From: an uncultured Clostridia bacterium
Lineage (GTDB): Bacteria > Bacillota > Clostridia > TANB77 > CAG-508
Direction: 5' to 3'
Assembly: GCA_947627935.1 (NCBI GenBank)
Contig: CANQXY010000001.1
Coordinates: forward strand, 15,495 to 79,494
Length of the DNA stretch: 64,000 nucleotides
The notes below the pieces were generated by a model. It was not told the DNA's origin. It was given only the letters and a program-made list of their open reading frames with translations, and ran no database searches. Of the stretch, positions 11,734-22,556 are shown piece by piece (position 1 is the first letter of the stretch; each line of letters starts with the position of its first letter). Position numbers and translations under genes: made by a program.

Positions 11734-11779
11734 TGTATGGTTAATATTTCTAGTGATTATATAATTAATAATAGTTTAT

Positions 11780-11930
11780 GGGGGTGTAATGGTTTCGACA
11801 TTATACTAGAAATATAAATAGCGAGTAGTGGATATTTACAAAGCTATATTTAATTTGAGTATGTTTGTTTATGCAAATTAATGGAAGGTATAGTGGACAG
11901 GAGTTCTATTCTCCTCACTTTCATCAATGA
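11780..11930 (+). pseudogene. ssrA': Internally deleted tmRNA (ssrA) remnant: about 57 nt of the 5' end joined to about 90 nt of the 3' end, with a degenerate acceptor end
   Basis: The 5' segment ggggtgtaatggtttcgacattatactagaaatataaatagcgagtagtgga is identical to 12908-12960. The 3' segment ...ggacaggagttctattctcctcactttcatcaa matches 13128-13259 with substitutions. The tag ORF and pseudoknot region are absent. The upstream promoter region is also partly duplicated or deleted. Confidence 0.55.
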
Positions 11931-12024
11931 GGTATCTGTTCAAACTTTTTTTAGTTGTTGAGGCTATTCCGATTATAGATAAATTGTACAAATGTTCAAA
12001 ATATATTGAAAAATAAATAAACAA

Positions 12025-12124: not shown

Positions 12125-12721
12125 TTATAATGAACATGGAATTTCTTTGTCATTGAAGTATTCTGCCAAATCGTGTAACAGTCTTTGATGAGATTTCCAC
12201 TCATAACAGCATTTATCAATACTATAATTAGAATTACATCTCCTTTCTGGTACTCCAAATACAGAATTACATTCATTTGATGGAATTAAGAGTCTTCCAC
12301 CAGTTGGCCTGTGCTCGTAATCAAGTTTGCATCCTTTTTCTGTTAGTAAAATACAAGGACTTCTTTCATATCCGCAATCTACAATAGGAGCATTTTGATT
12401 TCGTGCTCTAAGAATATAAATACCAAAATCTTCATAAATCATTTCTCCATCAACAAAGTCAATAGAAATATATCCTTTTTCTAACTCCTTTTTCAAAAAA
12501 TCGAAAGAAATTTCTTCAAAGTCGTCAGGGCTAAAATGACAGCCGCAGCGTTTACAGCATTTGCCACCACATTCAGCACAAATTTCGGTATTAACATTTT
12601 TAGATACAGAATAGTCTTTGCTTATACTCCGATAAGGCAATGTAGGATACATTAATTCTTCAAACCATCTGTGAAATTCATCTTCATTCATACCAAAAGC
12701 ATTCATAGTGTAGTCCTCCAA
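12125..12721 (-). CDS. YkgJ-family cysteine-cluster protein (CxxCGxCC putative zinc/iron-chelating domain), nested between the ssrA remnant and intact ssrA
   Basis: The 198-aa ORF has the CAECGGKCCKRCGCH motif plus further Cys pairs, and nearby hairpin terminators. There is no obvious link to neighbouring functions. Confidence 0.5.
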   Translation of the reverse strand: MEDYTMNAFGMNEDEFHRWFEELMYPTLPYRSISKDYSVSKNVNTEICAECGGKCCKRCGCHFSPDDFEEISFDFLKKELEKGYISIDFVDGEMIYEDFGIYILRARNQNAPIVDCGYERSPCILLTEKGCKLDYEHRPTGGRLLIPSNECNSVFGVPERRCNSNYSIDKCCYEWKSHQRLLHDLAEYFNDKEIPCSL

Positions 12722-12907: not shown

Positions 12908-13259
12908 GGGGGTGTAATGGTTTCGACATTATACTAGAAATATAAATAGCGAGTAGTGGATTCTCGTTGGCCACTTTAATAAACGGGAAAATAAATATAA
13001 ACGCTGATAAACAAGAATTAGCATTTGCTGCCTAAGAGCGGCAACGTCTTACTAGATGTCCCACACATTTAGTAAAGGCGATTATTTAGTGGGAAACAAA
13101 GCTACTTTTGCTTTAGGAGTAGTGGGTATTTATAAAGATATATTTAATTTGAGTATGTTTGTTTACGCAAATTAAATGAAAATAAATAACAAACTGCACT
13201 CGGAGAATTTTATATGGAAGGTATAGTGGACAGGAGTTCGATTCTCCTCACTTCCACCA
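12908..13259 (+). ncRNA. ssrA: tmRNA (transfer-messenger RNA, SsrA)
   Basis: The 5' GGGGGUG pairs with the 3' CACUUCC-A-CCA in a tRNA-Ala-like acceptor stem with G3:U70. A T-arm GGACAGGAGTTCGATTCTCC is present. An internal tag ORF ends ...GATAAACAAGAATTAGCATTTGCTGCCTAA (…DKQELAFAA*). The length is 352 nt. Confidence 0.9.
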
Positions 13260-13417
13260 ACAACGTATCTGTTCGAACTAATAGAACAGGATATATAAAT
13301 ACCACTCTGAAAAAGGGTGGTATTTTTTAGTTTTATTTTCAGTATGTATTACGTCATCCCCGAGTTTTGTATCATTGGTCAAAACTCATAGGGGGTTAGG
13401 ACTTTTGTCAGATTAAA
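13260..13417 (+). repeat. About 160-nt repeat (copy A) immediately 3' of ssrA: terminator hairpin plus a conserved inverted-repeat box GAGTTTTG-N10-CAAAACTC
   Basis: It is roughly 85% identical to 21445..21608, which follows tRNA-Thr. A partial copy is found at 14690..14768. Confidence 0.6.
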
Positions 13418-13595
13418 AAGCCCTTTATATAAAAAATAAATTTGTCTATTTTTTTACTTTAACATAAATTTTATTTCCTATTATAAAGAAAAAACAATAA
13501 TTTTCAAAGTATAAAACTCTTTAATTATCCTTAATAAATTGCAATAATTACATTTATATGTTAAAATAATAGCAATTAAAAAATAAGGAGAAATT

Positions 13596-14600
13596 ATGCA
13601 AGAAAAAAATATAGGAAAAATTACTACTGAAAGTTGGACATATCTTGATGGAGTACTTATTGAACATAAAGAAAAAGGAACACGTCAATCTGAATGGAAA
13701 TTAGCTGAACGTGAAACTGAAAATATTAGCATTGGTATGATAAATCCTGCTTATATAGAGATTAATGAGATTCAAGATAAGGATGATGAGTACAAAAAAA
13801 TTAAAAAATTCTTAAATAAATATGTAGAAAGATATGCAGAAAAAAATAGTATTCCAATTGAAGATTTAAGTATTGAATTTATAAATTATGGTAAAACTCA
13901 ACTTGTATATGTATTATCTGAAAGAAATGGTAAAAGAGTTACTTTACTAGTTAAGCAACCTGCTGTTCAATTAGGCAAAGTTCATCAAGAGGCTCAAAAT
14001 CTATGTGCTTTAAAAAAGAAGGATAAAAATGTTGTTGCACCAATAGATTATTTTCAACTTGGAGACCAAGAATTATATACAACTCGATATATTAATCAAG
14101 CTAGATGTATTGCTAGTTATGGCTCTTGGGGAATGTATGTTCCAGAACCATATTATAGATTTGAGCCATTTACACCAGAACAAGAAAAAATTGTTAATTC
14201 TTGTATGATTGCTAAACTTGTTAGCTTGTATGATTTTGAAAATCAAGAAGGAATAAGTTCTTGTAAATTAGGTGGTGGAGATTTCATGTTACCTAAAGGA
14301 TGGGAAAAAGAACCTCTAACTTTTGAAAATATTTTTAATAAATTGTATTTAACAGCTGCTAGAGAGAAAATAAAGTGTTCTTATGATGAATATATATCAA
14401 TTATAAGAGATGAATTTTCAAGAGCGACAATATCTGAAAATCAAAAAAATTTAATTATAAATTTAAGAGGTAGAGTTCCAATTAAAATTGAAAACATTAA
14501 CTCTGGAATTCAATTAGGACAAGCAATTATACATAGCAAGAAATATTGTCATTTAGAAAATAAACTTACAGGAAGAAAAGAAGATGATTTTGAACGTTAA
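13596..14600 (+). CDS. Hypothetical protein (334 aa), cargo of the ssrA-associated mini-element; weak protein-kinase-like features (Gly-rich loop NYGKTQLVY, VTLLVK)
   Basis: A long ORF with a good RBS (aaggag). It lies between repeat copy A and the right-end remnant. No confident family assignment can be made from the sequence alone. Confidence 0.6.
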   Translation: MQEKNIGKITTESWTYLDGVLIEHKEKGTRQSEWKLAERETENISIGMINPAYIEINEIQDKDDEYKKIKKFLNKYVERYAEKNSIPIEDLSIEFINYGKTQLVYVLSERNGKRVTLLVKQPAVQLGKVHQEAQNLCALKKKDKNVVAPIDYFQLGDQELYTTRYINQARCIASYGSWGMYVPEPYYRFEPFTPEQEKIVNSCMIAKLVSLYDFENQEGISSCKLGGGDFMLPKGWEKEPLTFENIFNKLYLTAAREKIKCSYDEYISIIRDEFSRATISENQKNLIINLRGRVPIKIENINSGIQLGQAIIHSKKYCHLENKLTGRKEDDFER

Positions 14601-14659
14601 AATTTATCTATAATTTTTGATATATTATAATAGGGATTTAGTGGTAAGATTGTATGATA

Positions 14660-14768
14660 AATTGTGAAGTTGTAAATATCTACGTCGTTGGCACCAATAA
14701 TTTATCTATTCTAACTATAGAACAGATAACTAGAAATATCATCCTGAAAAACTAATATTTTTAATTAT
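14660..14768 (+). repeat. Right-end remnant of the ssrA-associated element: the conserved motif AAGTTGTAAATATCTACGTCGTTGGCACCA followed by a degenerate copy of the first ~75 nt of the 160-nt repeat
   Basis: Hand alignment: 24 of 30 nt match 22101..22130. The following ATAATTTATCTATTCTAACTATAGAACAGATAACTAGAAATATCATCCTGAAAAAC aligns with 13263-13330 and 21448-21515. Confidence 0.45.
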
Positions 14769-17765: not shown

Positions 17766-17866
17766 TTTATTCTCCTAAATTTATTTTAAATTTTTATTAT
17801 AAATATTGTAACACAAAAATAATAATTTGCATATTATAACGTAATAAAATAAAAAGGAGGTAGTAA

Positions 17867-18010
17867 TATGCCAGAAGAAAATAGAAATTTTAATAATGGA
17901 GGCTTATTTGGAAATGATGGAACAATTTTATTTTTCATAATCATTTTCTTATTACTATTTACAAATTTTGGCTGCGGTTGTGGTTGTGGCTGTGGCTGTG
18001 GAAATAACTA
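17867..18010 (+). CDS. YjcZ-like small sporulation peptide with C-terminal (Gly-Cys)n repeat; the frame is broken by an extra A in an A-run at 17877-17881
   Basis: The RBS aaaaggagg lies 7 nt before the ATG at 17867. The intended translation, MPEENRNFNNGGLFGNDGTILFFIIIFLLLFTNFGCGCGCGCGCGNN, needs 4 rather than 5 A's after GAAGAA; as written, the ATG frame reads MPEEK*. A sigma-K-like promoter (AC-N16-CATATTATA) lies upstream at about 17800-17838. Confidence 0.35.
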
Positions 18011-18232
18011 ACATATTTAAAATTCATACTTATTTAATATAAAAAGGGGATAATAGATTAATATTATTCTCTTTTTTGTAATATTTTTGTTACAAACTGG
18101 TAATGAAAAAGTAATGAAAATAGGCGGTTAATTTATTGACTAAAAAATATTGTAATGATATACTTATTCTGATAAAAATTGACAAAAAATACTATAGAAA
18201 AAATATAATAATTAACAAAAGAGGTGGAAACT

Positions 18233-19981
18233 TTGAAATTAAATAAATTAATATCAATAACAATAATCTTTACAATTTTTTCAAGTATTATTTTTAATTT
18301 AATAATAAGTTCCAATACTTATGCTGTAACTCAAAATATAAGCACAAGCATTGATAAAATCGATGATAAAAAATATCCAGGAGTAAAGAAACTAATAAAA
18401 GAATTACAAAAAAATCATCCAAAATGGAAGTTTAAAGTATTATATACAAATTTGAGTTGGAATACTGTAATTGCAAATGAATATGTTGGGCATGGAAAGT
18501 CTCCAAAAAATCTATCACCAGCTAATATGAATAATTATTCAGGAGATTGGATTTGCTCTATTTGTGGAAATAGAAAGTATGATAGTGGTAGTTGGGTATG
18601 TGCATCAGAATCTGCAATAAAATATATGATGGATCCTAGAAATTCATTAAATGAGTTAGATATATTTCAATTTCAAGAATTAACATATGATAATTATAAT
18701 GAAAAAACTATAAAATCAATGGTAAAAGAAACTTTTATAGATAATACAGAATGTATAAAAGCAATAAAAGATGCTTCAAAAACATATAATGTAAGTCCTT
18801 ATTATATAGTTGCTAGAATATTACAAGAACAAGGAAAATCTGGATCAGTATTGACAAAAGGTAAAGGTTATAATGGAAAATATAAAGGCGTATATAATAT
18901 ATTTAATATAGGTGCAAATGGAAATGGAAAAAGTAGTGTTATTGAAAATGGATTAAAAACAGCGCAAAAAAACAAATGGACAAGTTTAGCACTATCAATA
19001 AAAGGTGGAGTTGAATTTATTTCAAAAGATTATATCAAAAAAGGACAAAATACATTATATTTCCAAAAATTTGATGTAGAAAATTCTGATAATAGTTTAT
19101 ATTGGCATCAATATATGCAAAACATATTAGCTGCTCAAGAAGAAGGAGAAAATTTAAGAGAAACATATCTAAATATAGATGAAACACTAAATAGTGAATA
19201 TACATTTATTATACCTTTATATGAAGATATGCCAAATATAGCATGTGCTAGACCTTCTACTACATCTTCAGTGGTTTCTACTGATTTAGTTAGAGTAAAT
19301 GTAAATACTAATATAAAATTAAGAAAAGAACCTAATGGAAGTTCAATTAATGAATATTTATATAAAGACGAAATAGTTACAAGATTAGAAAAAGCAACTA
19401 AAAAAGTAGGTGGAACATACTGGGATAAAATTATGAAATCAAATGGAATAGTTGGATATGTTGCTAGACAAACAGATGAAAATGAAAAGTATAAATTATA
19501 TTTAGTTCCTATAAATGATGAAACAAATGAAAACAATGAGGAAAATAATTCAAATAATGAAATTAATAATAACTCAAATGGAAATAATGCAATTAGTAAT
19601 AAAAAGGTTAAATTAGATAAAGATACAAGTATTGTTACTATAATCCCTGGAACTAAAGTATCTGATATTATAGAATTACTTGGAAAAGATACAGTTATAG
19701 TTGATGCAAATAAAAACAAATTATCTTCATCAAAAATAGCTGGAACTGGATGTAGGGTAGATGATAAATATACAATTGCTATGCTTGGAGATTTAAATGG
19801 AGATGCAACAATAAATTCAGGTGATTTACTACTAATGAAAAAATATTTGTTAGGAACTCATAAATTTACAAAAGTTTCTGAAAATGTTGCTATAGATGTT
19901 AATAATGATGGAAATGTAAATTCAGGTGATTTATTAATGATAAAGAAACAATTATTAGGAACTTCTAAAATCTCACTATAA
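18233..19981 (+). CDS. Secreted cell-wall hydrolase: GH73-like N-acetylglucosaminidase domain + SH3b domain + C-terminal type-I dockerin (two Ca-binding repeats)
   Basis: A TTG start lies 5 nt after the RBS agaggtgg, followed by a signal peptide (...NTYA). The glucosaminidase-like region is YYIVARILQEQGKSG...YNIFNIGANG. The SH3b region is KLRKEPNGSS...GYVA. The dockerin repeats are DLNGDATINSGDLLLMKKYLLG and DVNNDGNVNSGDLLMIKKQLLG. Confidence 0.7.
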   Translation: MKLNKLISITIIFTIFSSIIFNLIISSNTYAVTQNISTSIDKIDDKKYPGVKKLIKELQKNHPKWKFKVLYTNLSWNTVIANEYVGHGKSPKNLSPANMNNYSGDWICSICGNRKYDSGSWVCASESAIKYMMDPRNSLNELDIFQFQELTYDNYNEKTIKSMVKETFIDNTECIKAIKDASKTYNVSPYYIVARILQEQGKSGSVLTKGKGYNGKYKGVYNIFNIGANGNGKSSVIENGLKTAQKNKWTSLALSIKGGVEFISKDYIKKGQNTLYFQKFDVENSDNSLYWHQYMQNILAAQEEGENLRETYLNIDETLNSEYTFIIPLYEDMPNIACARPSTTSSVVSTDLVRVNVNTNIKLRKEPNGSSINEYLYKDEIVTRLEKATKKVGGTYWDKIMKSNGIVGYVARQTDENEKYKLYLVPINDETNENNEENNSNNEINNNSNGNNAISNKKVKLDKDTSIVTIIPGTKVSDIIELLGKDTVIVDANKNKLSSSKIAGTGCRVDDKYTIAMLGDLNGDATINSGDLLLMKKYLLGTHKFTKVSENVAIDVNNDGNVNSGDLLMIKKQLLGTSKISL

Positions 19982-21368: not shown

Positions 21369-21444
21369 GCTATTATAGCTCAGTTGGTAGAGCAACAGAT
21401 TCGTAACCTGTAGGTCGGCGGTTCGATTCCGCCTAATAGCTCCA
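21369..21444 (+). tRNA. tRNA-Thr (anticodon CGT)
   Basis: Hand-folded cloverleaf: acceptor GCTATTA/TAATAGC, D-arm GCTC-AGTTGGTA-GAGC, anticodon loop TTCGTAA, T-arm GGCGG-TTCGATT-CCGCC, discriminator T and an encoded CCA. Confidence 0.9.
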
Positions 21445-21608
21445 ACAACGAATTCGTTTGAACTTTATAGAACAGATATATAAATATCATTCTGAAAAAG
21501 AATGGTATTTTTTTATTATTTTTATTTTCAGTATGAATTACATCGTCCTCGAGTTTTGAACATTGGTCAAAACTCATAGTGGGTTAGGACTTGTGACGAG
21601 ATCAAAGT
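21445..21608 (+). repeat. About 160-nt repeat (copy B) immediately 3' of tRNA-Thr, homologous to the sequence 3' of ssrA
   Basis: It is about 85% identical to 13260..13417, including the terminator hairpin (tcattctgaaaaagaatgg + T-run) and the GAGTTTTGAACATTGGTCAAAACTC box. Confidence 0.6.
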
Positions 21609-21819
21609 TTGTATCTGGCGAAAAAATATAAAATTACTTTGAAAAATTTTATCAAATATAAATTTGTAGTGTTTACAATTGAAGAAATTGAGAGAAATAA
21701 AATTGAATTGTATTTATTCAATAGTGTAAAAATAAATATTATAAATTTCAAAGAAAAAACACTATTTTTTGTCAAAAAAAGAGAGAGCTTTAATAAAAAC
21801 TCTCTCTGTTCCTATCTTG

Positions 21820-21966
21820 CTAAAAGCCATATTCATCGTGCTTCTTTTTTCTTGCTTCAAATGGGTCTTTTTTCTGTTTTTGAGTCTCTTTCATCCACTT
21901 TTGGTATTTCTCCCAATCTTTTTGTCTTTCTTCTGCTCTACGATTTCTTGGTAAATTGACTTTCAT
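21820..21966 (-). CDS. Small highly basic protein (48 aa: MKVNLPRNRRAEERQKDWEKYQKWMKETQKQKKDPFEARKKKHDEYGF)
   Basis: Hand translation of the reverse strand. The RBS aggagg lies 6 nt upstream. A perfect terminator hairpin (aaaaagagagagcttt-attaaag-ctctctcttttt) lies directly downstream. The overlapping forward ORFs 21609..21959 and 21769..21954 are considered spurious. Confidence 0.4.
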   Translation of the reverse strand: MKVNLPRNRRAEERQKDWEKYQKWMKETQKQKKDPFEARKKKHDEYGF

Positions 21967-22087
21967 GATGGAACCTCCTTAATTTTATTTTCCTTATTGG
22001 GAATATATATATAATACCATATATTTAATATATTTACAACTTTTGTTAGAAATAATACCCATAAAATGATTTATATTTGTATAAATT

Positions 22088-22140
22088 CACTAAAAGAGAA
22101 AAGTTGTAGATAACTACGACGTCCGCTCCATTAAGTAAAA
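22088..22140 (+). repeat. Putative right-end remnant of the tRNA-Thr-associated mini-element (AAGTTGTAGATAACTACGACGTCCGCTCCA), related to 14660..14700
   Basis: 24 of 30 nt are identical to the ssrA-side motif. Upstream it shares TGTATAAATT/TGTATGATAAATT. GCTCCA resembles the tRNA-Thr 3' end (AGCTCCA). Confidence 0.35.
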
Positions 22141-22556
22141 TCGTTGGACTTTGGCAAAAGTATTGATAAATCAACTGTAAAGGGTTGTTTTTTTGATGCC
22201 TTTAATTTTAAACGAAAGGATTGTGTGAGATGATTACTGTAATCAAAAAGGAAATTGAGTTAGAATTGAACAAAGAAAAACCAAAATTGATTAAATTAGT
22301 TGCAGTAAAAAGTGATAAAAATTTTTCAATAACTAAACAAGAAAATTATAAAAGTGGTGCAATAATAAATAAAGAAAAATGAAAAAATAATAGGAAAATT
22401 TCTGTTCAAAATGATTTTTGTATTCCATTGGTACTCTATCAAGCACTGAATTTTCCTCTATAGTCAAAATAATAAACGAATAAAAAAATATTTTATGGTT
22501 TAAATATTATGAAATAAATTAAAGATAACCGGCAACAACATTGCCGGTTTAGAGGT

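Follow-up and report, generated by a model that had tools for sequence, protein, structure and literature searches.

A stretch of 64,000 nts from an uncultured Clostridia bacterium (contig CANQXY010000001.1, assembly GCA_947627935.1), hereafter called the window, contains ssrA, the gene of the transfer-messenger RNA (tmRNA), at positions 12908-13259 of the plus strand, identified with ARAGORN and Rfam (170.9 bits). A tRNA-Thr(cgt) gene lies on the same strand at 21369-21444 (ARAGORN, Rfam). Both genes are directly followed by a short insert. The ssrA insert spans 13257-14693, i.e., about 1.4 kb. The second insert measures 686 bp (21442-22127, plus strand) and consists of a left end, a terminator-like hairpin, a putative origin of transfer (oriT), a cargo region and a right end at 22103-22127. 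The original prediction, which was drawn from the sequence alone, had described the ssrA insert as a miniature integrase-less element with a single gene encoding a 334-aa protein. This description is borne out, since 13257-14693 contains no other open reading frame (ORF) and full-length relatives share its ends.

As also predicted, a repeat of about 160 nts follows both genes. The 158 nts 3′ of ssrA (13260-13417) and the 164 nts 3′ of tRNA-Thr (21445-21608) are identical at 137 of 166 alignment columns, hence at 82.5% rather than the ~85% first proposed, and a separate repeat search returned blocks of 84-88% identity. Each copy starts with ACAACG(T/A)AT directly 3′ of the CCA and continues with a hairpin (ATCTGTTC...GAACAGGAT), a terminator, a 27-nt spacer and a box, formed by the inverted repeat GAGTTTTG-N9/10-CAAAACTC and the following ATAG(G/T)GGGTTAGGACTT. 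The terminator hairpin was recovered at 13297-13325 by a terminator scan and the inverted repeat at 13362-13387, with the expected N10 spacer at ssrA and an N9 spacer in the Thr copy (21551-21575). The left attachment site attL of the ssrA insert (13257-13292, plus strand) comprises the element-side half-site P′ (CCAACAACGTATCTGTTCGAAC) and the hairpin (13267-13292), while the intrinsic terminator (13297-13328, plus strand) is borne by the element and replaces the native ssrA terminator. No Rfam match was found within the 160-nt repeat.

At the other end, the 22-mer AAGTTGTARATAWCTACGWCGT occurs exactly twice in the 64 kb, at 14667-14688 and 22101-22122 (0.01 expected by chance; none of 100 shuffles contained two matches), and the 28-nt right-end motif ending in CCA is present in the window only at 14669-14696 and 22103-22130. 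The two copies run to ...G-CA-CCA (end 14696) and ...G-CT-CCA (end 22130), their last 5-6 nts matching the tip of the upstream gene, i.e., CACCA for ssrA and GCTCCA for tRNA-Thr. The right attachment site attR of the ssrA insert (14669-14696, plus strand) is composed of the half-site P (GTTGTAAATATCTACGTCGTTGG), a central CA (14692-14693) and the displaced original CCA, the position of which is corrected here to 14694-14696. It is the same as the consensus right end and the right ends of two other loci (L022 and L035), and the motif also ends L012, L017 and L028 among the full-length loci presented below. Likewise, the right end of the Thr element is identical at 28 of 28 nts to that of an element carrying recombinase and relaxase genes (L009). 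A tRNA-like origin of the motif was considered and ruled out, as it contains no T-arm.

The degenerate repeat copy predicted behind the right end of the ssrA insert was reproduced by alignment: 14697-14767 is 70.5% identical to 13260-13335, with a score of 25, while 1000 shuffles averaged -6.7 and did not exceed 11 (z = 7). The flank of the Thr element (from 22131) is not repeat-like, because its alignment score falls within the range of shuffles. There, the displaced CCA is followed by a short hairpin and a T-run (22128-22200, plus strand), which is unlike the element left end and looks like the native tRNA-Thr trailer.

The cargo gene of the ssrA insert (13596-14600, plus strand) encodes the 334-aa protein, for which no Pfam or PADLOC match and a single, far sub-threshold NCBIfam match were obtained; exact-protein look-ups of this protein and of the neighbouring rubrerythrin returned nothing. 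Its AlphaFold (AF2) model (predicted local distance difference test 86, predicted template-modelling score 0.77) gave 580 Foldseek matches in the PDB with E ≤ 1e-3, the best at 1e-5, to kinase domains, with template-modelling scores of 0.29-0.36 among the top ones. Judging from the model, the protein is a passenger with a protein-kinase-like fold and no recombinase. It has 363 homologues (56-80% identity) in varied neighbourhoods, often near tRNA genes, one of which (L002) adjoins a left end of the same element family at tRNA-Thr(ggt). The lack of a family assignment and these variable, tRNA-rich contexts could point to a novel mobility enzyme and thus to an autonomous element. This is highly improbable in view of the modelled kinase-like fold and of the Thr element and eight other miniature elements with the same ends, which do without the gene; moreover, one homologue (L005) lies among ordinary genes with no tRNA near. 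The Thr element carries as cargo only a minus-strand ORF for a basic product of 48 aa (21820-21966), which is preceded by a strong ribosome-binding site and has a terminator of its own (21780-21807).

A 73% homologue of the 334-aa gene was also observed between two different tRNA-Gly(tcc) genes (L001, 5680-5840 and 7180-7332). Both tRNA genes are followed by a terminator and then by the repeat ACTATTCACTATTAACTATTCATTTTTCACTATTC, and genes for TnpV and a NikA-like protein adjoin. This arrangement is another tRNA-linked island family.

Full-length relatives and the putative origin of transfer

The original prediction had called for a search for an integrase linked to further copies of the repeat. 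None is encoded in the 64-kb window, and a recombinase was found in relatives. A 24-mer of the box (GGTCAAAACTCATAGNGGGTTAGG), which leaves the left hairpin arm outside the probe, was searched in 185,579 species-representative genomes and identified 27 loci in 22 metagenome-assembled genomes (MAGs), all titled uncultured Clostridia or Clostridium and originating from rabbit, mouse and other sampling series. At nine loci, termed class B (L009, L012, L017, L018, L021, L023, L028, L032 and L034), the box is located between a recombinase gene and a relaxase gene. The recombinase, of about 640 aa (2130-4058 in L028), matches the Pfam families Resolvase (1.9e-32) and Recombinase (6.4e-19) and has the N-terminal motif YMRVSTEDQ, which identifies it at the sequence level as a large serine recombinase (LSR); its best NCBIfam match is CcrB, far under the cut-off of that model. 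The second protein matches Mob_Pre (3.4e-13), contains the motif HFDETSPHMH and scores 29 bits with the NCBIfam MobV model (cut-off 100); it is a distant MobV-type relaxase, and a sequence search with it against the PDB gave no match.

The full-length gene order is a small ORF, the LSR, oriT, the MobV relaxase and cargo, within about 5.5-6.2 kb; the copies complete between both ends measure 6.2 kb (L028) and 5.55 kb (L012). Class B left ends read CCA followed by ACGACGTATCTGTTCGAAC...GAACAG and a terminator, directly behind a tRNA or tmRNA gene: tRNA-Leu(tag) in L028 and L021, tRNA-Leu(caa) in L032, tmRNA in L018 and tRNA-Arg(tct) in L017. The right ends read GTTGTARATATCTACGTC....GCACCA (L012, L017 and L028) or GTTGTAGATAACTACGACGTCCGCTCCA (L009). 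Elements with 83-89% nucleotide identity occupy tRNA-Leu(tag) (L021 and L028), a non-tRNA tandem site (L012) and a target outside the contig (L009), and copies of the same architecture are found at tRNA-Leu(caa) and tmRNA. Because near-identical and same-architecture elements thus occupy different tRNA and tmRNA sites, the specificity of the LSR appears to be directed at a generic tRNA tip and not at one gene. In the tmRNA copy, an ORF whose beginning resembles a group II intron reverse transcriptase/maturase interrupts the LSR gene (L018, oriented 4582-5826).

Outside these MAGs, plasmid and phage collections contained no close relative of the full-length element, with a single 78-nt match in a Mycoplasma Pre gene. 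The best matches of its proteins in phage records are integrases with 28% identity, and there are none in plasmids. Scanning IMG/VR with the box gave 0 matches.

Loci of the window type, termed class A, have the same left end and the box within 120 nts, without a recombinase gene, and the right-end motif lies 0.6-1.6 kb further on where the locus reaches. Nine miniature elements are complete (0.69-1.75 kb) and contain no recombinase or relaxase ORF, namely the two window copies and those in L016, L022, L024, L026, L027, L033 and L035. Their cargo is diverse, comprising a Bro-N protein and several unknowns, and an S-adenosylmethionine-dependent methyltransferase is encoded by a copy whose ends are in separate loci (L030/L031). 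A tenth LSR-less copy, in L017, keeps a fragment of the recombinase gene and carries a GNAT acetyltransferase gene. L015, L016 and L017 each have their own separate deletion junction, and recombinase loss occurred several times.

Sixteen class A copies were aligned, including both window copies, the 17th (L030) being cut at the locus edge. They share one 27-nt spacer between terminator and oriT (TTATTTTCAGTATGTATTACATCATCC), conserved at ≥90%, for which no counterpart was found in the full-length elements. These 16 copies sit behind eight tRNA species and tmRNA in many MAG species. Across species, the P′ arm with its hairpin, the terminator and oriT are conserved at ≥90%, with compensatory changes between the terminator stems, whereas the DNA beyond is unalignable. 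In addition, homologous Bro-N cargo (83% nucleotide identity) is present in miniature elements at tRNA-Met (L011) and tRNA-Leu(caa) (L027). The targets observed are tRNA-Leu(tag, caa, taa), tRNA-Met, tRNA-Thr(ggt, cgt), tRNA-Arg(acg, tct, cct) and tmRNA.

The putative oriT of the ssrA insert (13358-13425, plus strand) comprises CCCC (13358-13361), the inverted-repeat arms GAGTTTTG (13362-13369) and CAAAACTC (13380-13387), an ATA bulge (13388-13390) and GGGGG (13391-13395), with a predicted nick between G13395 and T13396, and a second, degenerate inverted repeat. In the Thr copy, on the same strand, the arms at 21551-21558 and 21568-21575 are followed by ATAGTGGG/TTA, with a predicted nick between G21583 and T21584. 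RNAalifold on 27 copies revealed an invariant 8-bp hairpin, the 3-nt ATA bulge and a 3-bp CCC:GGG extension, then GG/TTAGG; the left hairpin arm is invariant although it lies outside the search pattern. The second inverted repeat displays no clean covariation. The sequence 3′ of the hairpin is ATAGGGGG/TTA, and the predicted relaxase site, written as the inverted repeat plus 8 nts, is GAGTTTTG...CAAAACTCATAGGGGG/TTAGG. In class B, the box is directly upstream of the Mob_Pre/MobV gene.

The oriT of pMV158 has an IR1 with a 7-bp stem, a G/T nick 8 nts downstream and an ATA bulge in the extended hairpin IR3, and MobM contacts the site AAGtaTAGTGTG, beside TGTG/TTATAC (PMC5863519). The box shares with this MOBV1 system the IR1 hairpin, the ATA bulge, the G/T nick 8 nts on, the ATAG-G-G/TTA sequence and the location just 5′ of the mob gene, whereas the stems differ (ACTTTAT in pMV158 vs GAGTTTTG) and the relaxase is distant. 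With the MOBV1-type layout found in both sequence and position, the box most probably serves as an origin of transfer of the pMV158 type, which the original prediction had not recognized. A role as an RNA leader was considered and rejected. Beside a tRNA-Leu(taa) gene on the opposite strand, L014 has a portion of the box (around 5257-5420) in reverse orientation to the left end, which looks like an inversion between both arms of the inverted repeat.

Recombination sites and empty targets

The same left end was met behind 10 tRNA species and tmRNA across 31 junctions. Comparison of these 31 left and of 16 right junctions yielded the consensus arms ...AGTTGTAaATAtCTACGTCgttgG for P and CCAAcGACGTATCTGTTCGAACT for P′. 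All 11 positions beside the centre agree between consensus P and reverse-complemented P′, and the joined consensus ends (attP) read TACGTCGTTGG-CA-CCAACGACGTA, an 11-bp dyad around a 2-bp centre; the dyad of the ssrA copy in the window has one mismatch. Imperfect dyads around a 2-bp centre are characteristic of the att sites used by serine recombinases (for Tn4451, see PMC5704250). Here, the centre is CA at 25 of the 31 left and 13 of the 16 right junctions. It is CT at four left junctions, after GCTCCA, which belongs to an intact tRNA-Thr gene in L013, L020 and the window and to a non-tRNA flank in L029, and at the right ends of the window Thr element and of L009, whose contig starts inside the element. 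Both ends of an insert carry the same dinucleotide (CA/CA at ssrA, CT/CT at tRNA-Thr), and the centre coincides with tRNA position 72 and the discriminator (positions 72-73), corresponding to CA 13255-13256 in ssrA, i.e., the final acceptor-stem base and the discriminator, and to CT 21440-21441 in tRNA-Thr.

An empty and an occupied tRNA-Leu(tag) gene could be compared directly. The empty gene (L026) reads CCGCACCA followed by GTCTGGATGTTTTTATAGGATTT. In the occupied one (L028), attL reads CCGCACCA followed by ACGACG and attR reads GGCACCA followed by GTATAAGTGTTCTTATGGGATTT; therefore the native trailer resumes directly after the CCA of attR. Only G-CA-CCA is common to all four compared sites. 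The sites thus combine three features of LSR attachment sites, namely the dyad around a 2-bp centre, the same dinucleotide in attL and attR, and minimal identity with attB, and we infer from them a crossover at the CA dinucleotide. If so, element DNA would supply both the CCA at the end of ssrA (13257-13259) and the terminator behind it, and the original CCA would be that at 14694-14696.

This architecture departs from the classic layout of integration into a tRNA-like gene, which the original prediction had recognized at ssrA, as only the CCA is rebuilt. That layout would make the insert the remnant of a tyrosine-integrase island, with a long 3′ part of ssrA rebuilt and the direct repeats as the attL/attR core. 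The 3′ ends of tmRNA and tRNA genes are indeed typical targets of tyrosine integrases (PMC5704250), and an imperfect repeat of ~70 nts does follow both CCA ends at the ssrA locus. However, the full-length copies encode an LSR and in no case a tyrosine integrase, attL, attR and empty sites share G-CA-CCA only, the joined ends form the 11-bp dyad, and the 70-nt repeat is missing at the Thr locus and differs from the native trailer; a tyrosine-integrase origin is accordingly very unlikely. Still less credible is a palindrome-associated transposable element (PATE) of the IS200/IS605 type, with hairpin ends and insertion 3′ of NCCA: there are subterminal hairpins at both ends and the insertion lies exactly behind a short target motif, but the hairpin at the left end bears no sequence relationship to that at the right, no copy encodes TnpA or TnpB, and the full-length copies carry an LSR. 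Related subterminal hairpins at the two ends and, in autonomous copies, a Y1 transposase, which define that group, are both missing here.

The ssrA site itself was examined in four ENA contigs (L007, L008, L036 and L037), reached via the 90% cluster of the neighbouring U32 peptidase. L007, whose identity to the window is 99.97-100%, and L037 (99.1%) contain the same insert, while the contig of L036 stops short of the site. In L008, with flanks 91-94% and ssrA 97.6% identical to the window, the site is empty: rubrerythrin, a terminator, the ssrA promoter and ssrA are followed by ...CTTCCACCA, then directly by CAAATTGCTAAATTTATTTAGCAATTTTTTT... and the promoter of the next gene. L008 lacks 13260 to ~14767 of the window, homology resumes at TTGATA (~14768), and its own terminator occupies the position of the degenerate repeat of the window. 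A scan with a 32-mer of the ssrA 3′ end found only unrelated taxa with native terminators, and at the tRNA-Thr locus the sole related contig ends 23 nts past the flanking gene.

An empty ssrA site thus exists in a related genome, and the aligner reproduced the degenerate copy, so that neither of the findings proposed as a refutation was made. Nevertheless, the empty site does not continue with the sequence at 14700-14768. The prediction of an element-borne left end stands, whereas its view of 14697-14767 as displaced native trailer does not: because the empty site in L008 has a different trailer (CAAATTGCTAAATTTATTTAGCAATTTTTTT), this segment (plus strand) is the decayed left end, with P′ and a degenerate terminator, of an earlier insertion that took the place of the native ssrA trailer.

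The same comparisons bear on the view that nothing here is mobile and that the 160 nts are a vertically inherited tRNA trailer, processing signal or small RNA. The sequence is always behind tRNA-like genes and its terminator stem shows compensatory changes, as this view would have it. Yet it does not follow ssrA in L008 or tRNA-Leu in L025 and L026, is physically contained in elements with recombinase and relaxase genes, also follows non-tRNA sequence in tandem arrays and has no Rfam match, which leaves this explanation hardly any weight.

Older events are recorded upstream. A decayed ssrA duplicate (11737-11946, plus strand) retains its promoter and both termini (11737-11927), its tag reading frame having been lost among three internal deletions. 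It ends in a third, decayed left end, TCAATGAGGTATCTGTTCAAAC (11924-11946), which was detected by pattern search and is the trace of yet another integration. This pseudo-ssrA holds the ancestral position, directly behind the rubrerythrin terminator, and the intact ssrA lies 1.1 kb downstream. Between the two lies a Cys-rich 198-aa ORF (12125-12721, minus strand), absent in L008 and without a match in Pfam, PADLOC or NCBIfam, which an earlier insertion probably brought in as cargo. Both ssrA copies of the window have one promoter base in common that is different in L008, which places the duplication within the window lineage. Two left-end relics, the present element and pseudo-ssrA therefore imply at least three integrations and one duplication at the locus, and the scrambled arrangement is accounted for by the duplicated pseudo-ssrA together with left ends of three generations.

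Other arrangements were noted at related loci. L025 (oriented 7317-7575) contains an intact tRNA-Leu(caa) gene with its own terminator and, ~150 nts further on, an element left end to which 23 nts copied from the 3′ end of the tRNA are fused; the old 3′ end was apparently displaced by a further insertion that is now tiny. Four left ends are preceded by TTCGCA[AT]A...G-C[AT]-CCA in place of a tRNA (oriented positions 2184-2211 in L012, 1565-1592 in L024, 783-810 in L029 and 247-274 in L035); this sequence may belong to a second element family in tandem, as its right end. Elsewhere in the window, an ORF at 17869-18011 encodes a 47-aa peptide ending in the Gly-Cys repeat GCGCGCGCGCG, a region in which L007 lacks 132 nts (17857-17988), and 18224-19981 encodes a protein with a dockerin type I domain. 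The genome has 25% G+C, and the host belongs to an uncultured low-GC Clostridia lineage of animal guts.

Proposed spread of the miniature elements

Taken together, we consider with a probability of about 0.8 that 13257-14693 is a non-autonomous miniature of a family of integrative and mobilizable elements (IMEs) of uncultured low-GC gut Clostridia, which use an LSR and a MobV relaxase and target tRNA and tmRNA tips. In the proposed mechanism, the LSR would bring about recombination between attP (GTTGTAAATATCTACGTCGTTGG-CA-CCAACGACGTATCTGTTCGAAC) and a tRNA-like gene's tip, by exchange at the 2-bp centre, i.e., the last acceptor-stem base and the discriminator (CA, or CT for tRNA-Thr). After integration, the CCA of the element would complete the gene and the element-borne terminator would end the transcript, the original CCA and trailer ending up past the right end. 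Both enzyme genes have been lost from the window copy, which retains its pair of half-sites together with the terminator, oriT and a single cargo gene. Its excision would yield a circular junction ...CTACGTCGTTGG-CA-CCAACAACGTATCTG... and a repaired ssrA-CCA followed by ATAATTTATCT. As both enzyme genes are lost, excision, re-integration and conjugative transfer would be possible only with an LSR and a MobV relaxase, plus a conjugative pore, provided in trans by a full-length relative.

Alternatively, a full-length element may have decayed in place at ssrA, leaving an inert fossil that never moved as a miniature and whose conserved sites are simply young. The independent deletion derivatives L015, L016 and L017, with their distinct junctions, demonstrate that decay of this kind happens; no helper element is seen with class A copies, and both copies in the window have a degenerate second oriT repeat. 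In-situ decay would give differing junctions, however, whereas the 16 class A copies share the 27-nt spacer junction across eight tRNA species and tmRNA. Homologous cargo at two different tRNAs, and att and oriT segments conserved next to neighbouring DNA that is not, also speak against a fossil, which we therefore regard as unlikely, if the most serious of the alternatives. The shared deletion junction at many targets and the tandem arrays lend indirect support to mobilization with, or by, an incoming related element, and the simplest account would be one enzyme-less lineage that spread as such through a recombinase and a relaxase acting in trans.

Several observations weigh against a mobile miniature. 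No LSR or relaxase gene is encoded in the 64-kb window, the 24-mer probe detected no full-length copy alongside the class A copies in their MAGs, which are fragmentary, and a search of JGI metagenomes for the circular attP junction gave 0 matches. The second inverted repeat of oriT is degenerate in both window copies, the P′ dyad of which also carries a mismatch, such that these copies may no longer be competent. Recent movement is not supported either, because the filled ssrA state is found in all three same-species contigs and the sole empty ssrA site in a relative with 91-94% identity. The tandem arrays in L016 and L027 and the remnant at 14697 imply events of the attP x attL type; to our knowledge, canonical phage LSRs do not perform such recombination. 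Finally, L025 combines the class A spacer with a relaxase gene, hence class A may have its own, unseen autonomous form.

A broader reading is that a generic-tip LSR drives a cassette-like system, in which one-gene miniatures, reduced to half-sites, terminator and oriT, parasitize the enzymes of their relatives, hop between tRNAs and cells and form arrays. We put this forward tentatively, with the odds somewhat against it. The likeness to integron gene cassettes would be functional only, in that units with one gene and no enzyme form arrays. An integron cassette as such was rejected, because LSR-type half-sites make up the ends and no IntI is present.

Within this element family of uncultured gut Clostridia, accessory genes would travel as minimal att and oriT units. 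If mobilization in trans is true, the miniatures would be double hitch-hikers, on a recombinase and on a relaxase, paralleling pseudo-SCC cassettes and oriT-only plasmids. Similarly, if generic tRNA-tip targeting is true, an LSR that uses the near-universal tRNA tip, and whose element provides CCA and a terminator so that the target gene still works, would make an appealing tool for integration in a broad range of hosts. The interest of the system rises with both propositions.

Comparison with known systems

The element family of gut Clostridia described here has been undescribed so far, and the window elements are decayed members resembling IMEs or cis-mobilizable elements (CIMEs). The staphylococcal cassette chromosome SCCmec and the pseudo-SCC cassettes depend on the serine recombinases CcrAB or CcrC, which insert at the 3′ end of a conserved gene and leave it intact, and cassettes without ccr are movable in trans. 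The present elements similarly insert at a gene end without inactivation and form arrays in which recombinase-less units share the bounding repeats. In contrast, the target of SCCmec is protein-coding (rlmH), no oriT/relaxase module is present and the cassettes are far larger.

Tn4451 and Tn4453 are clostridial mobilizable transposons with a large serine recombinase, using a 2-bp identity, and a MobV relaxase (PMC5704250). The full-length relatives resemble them in the LSR with 2-bp identity, the MobV/Pre relaxase with oriT, the small size and the clostridial host. Unlike them, Tn4451 has a low target specificity without tRNA targeting; the proteins encoded here are distant, and the window elements lack both enzymes.

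CIMEs and other decayed remnants of IMEs or integrative-conjugative elements (ICEs) carry attL and attR on their flanks, have lost genes by deletion and undergo tandem accretion (PMC5704250, PMC12084326). The window elements are like them in the flanking attL and attR, the loss of integration and transfer genes and the tandem build-up at the target gene; their ends are those of the LSR/MobV family, with no recombination or transfer genes between them. In the strict sense, an IME possesses its own recombinase, which is the case for L012 and L028 and not for the window elements, and usually an oriT with a relaxase, of which the window elements have an oriT-like site and no relaxase gene. Described CIMEs, however, mostly stem from elements with a tyrosine integrase and tend to occur as solitary relics, whereas the oriT-keeping lineage recurs at eight tRNA species and tmRNA, a contrast that suggests spread as a mini-element.

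Serine-recombinase IMEs have been described as integrating inside genes (PMC5704250), and integration at tRNA genes is described as rare for elements with a serine recombinase, the examples being phiRSM at tRNA-Ser and the actinomycete ICEs (AICEs) of Mycobacterium at tRNA-Leu (PMC3218068). The elements described here have in common with both that a serine recombinase integrates at a tRNA gene. They differ in that phiRSM and the AICEs each use one tRNA, and the phiRSM enzyme is small and resolvase-like, while the present family occupies several tRNAs, tmRNA and a non-tRNA tandem site.

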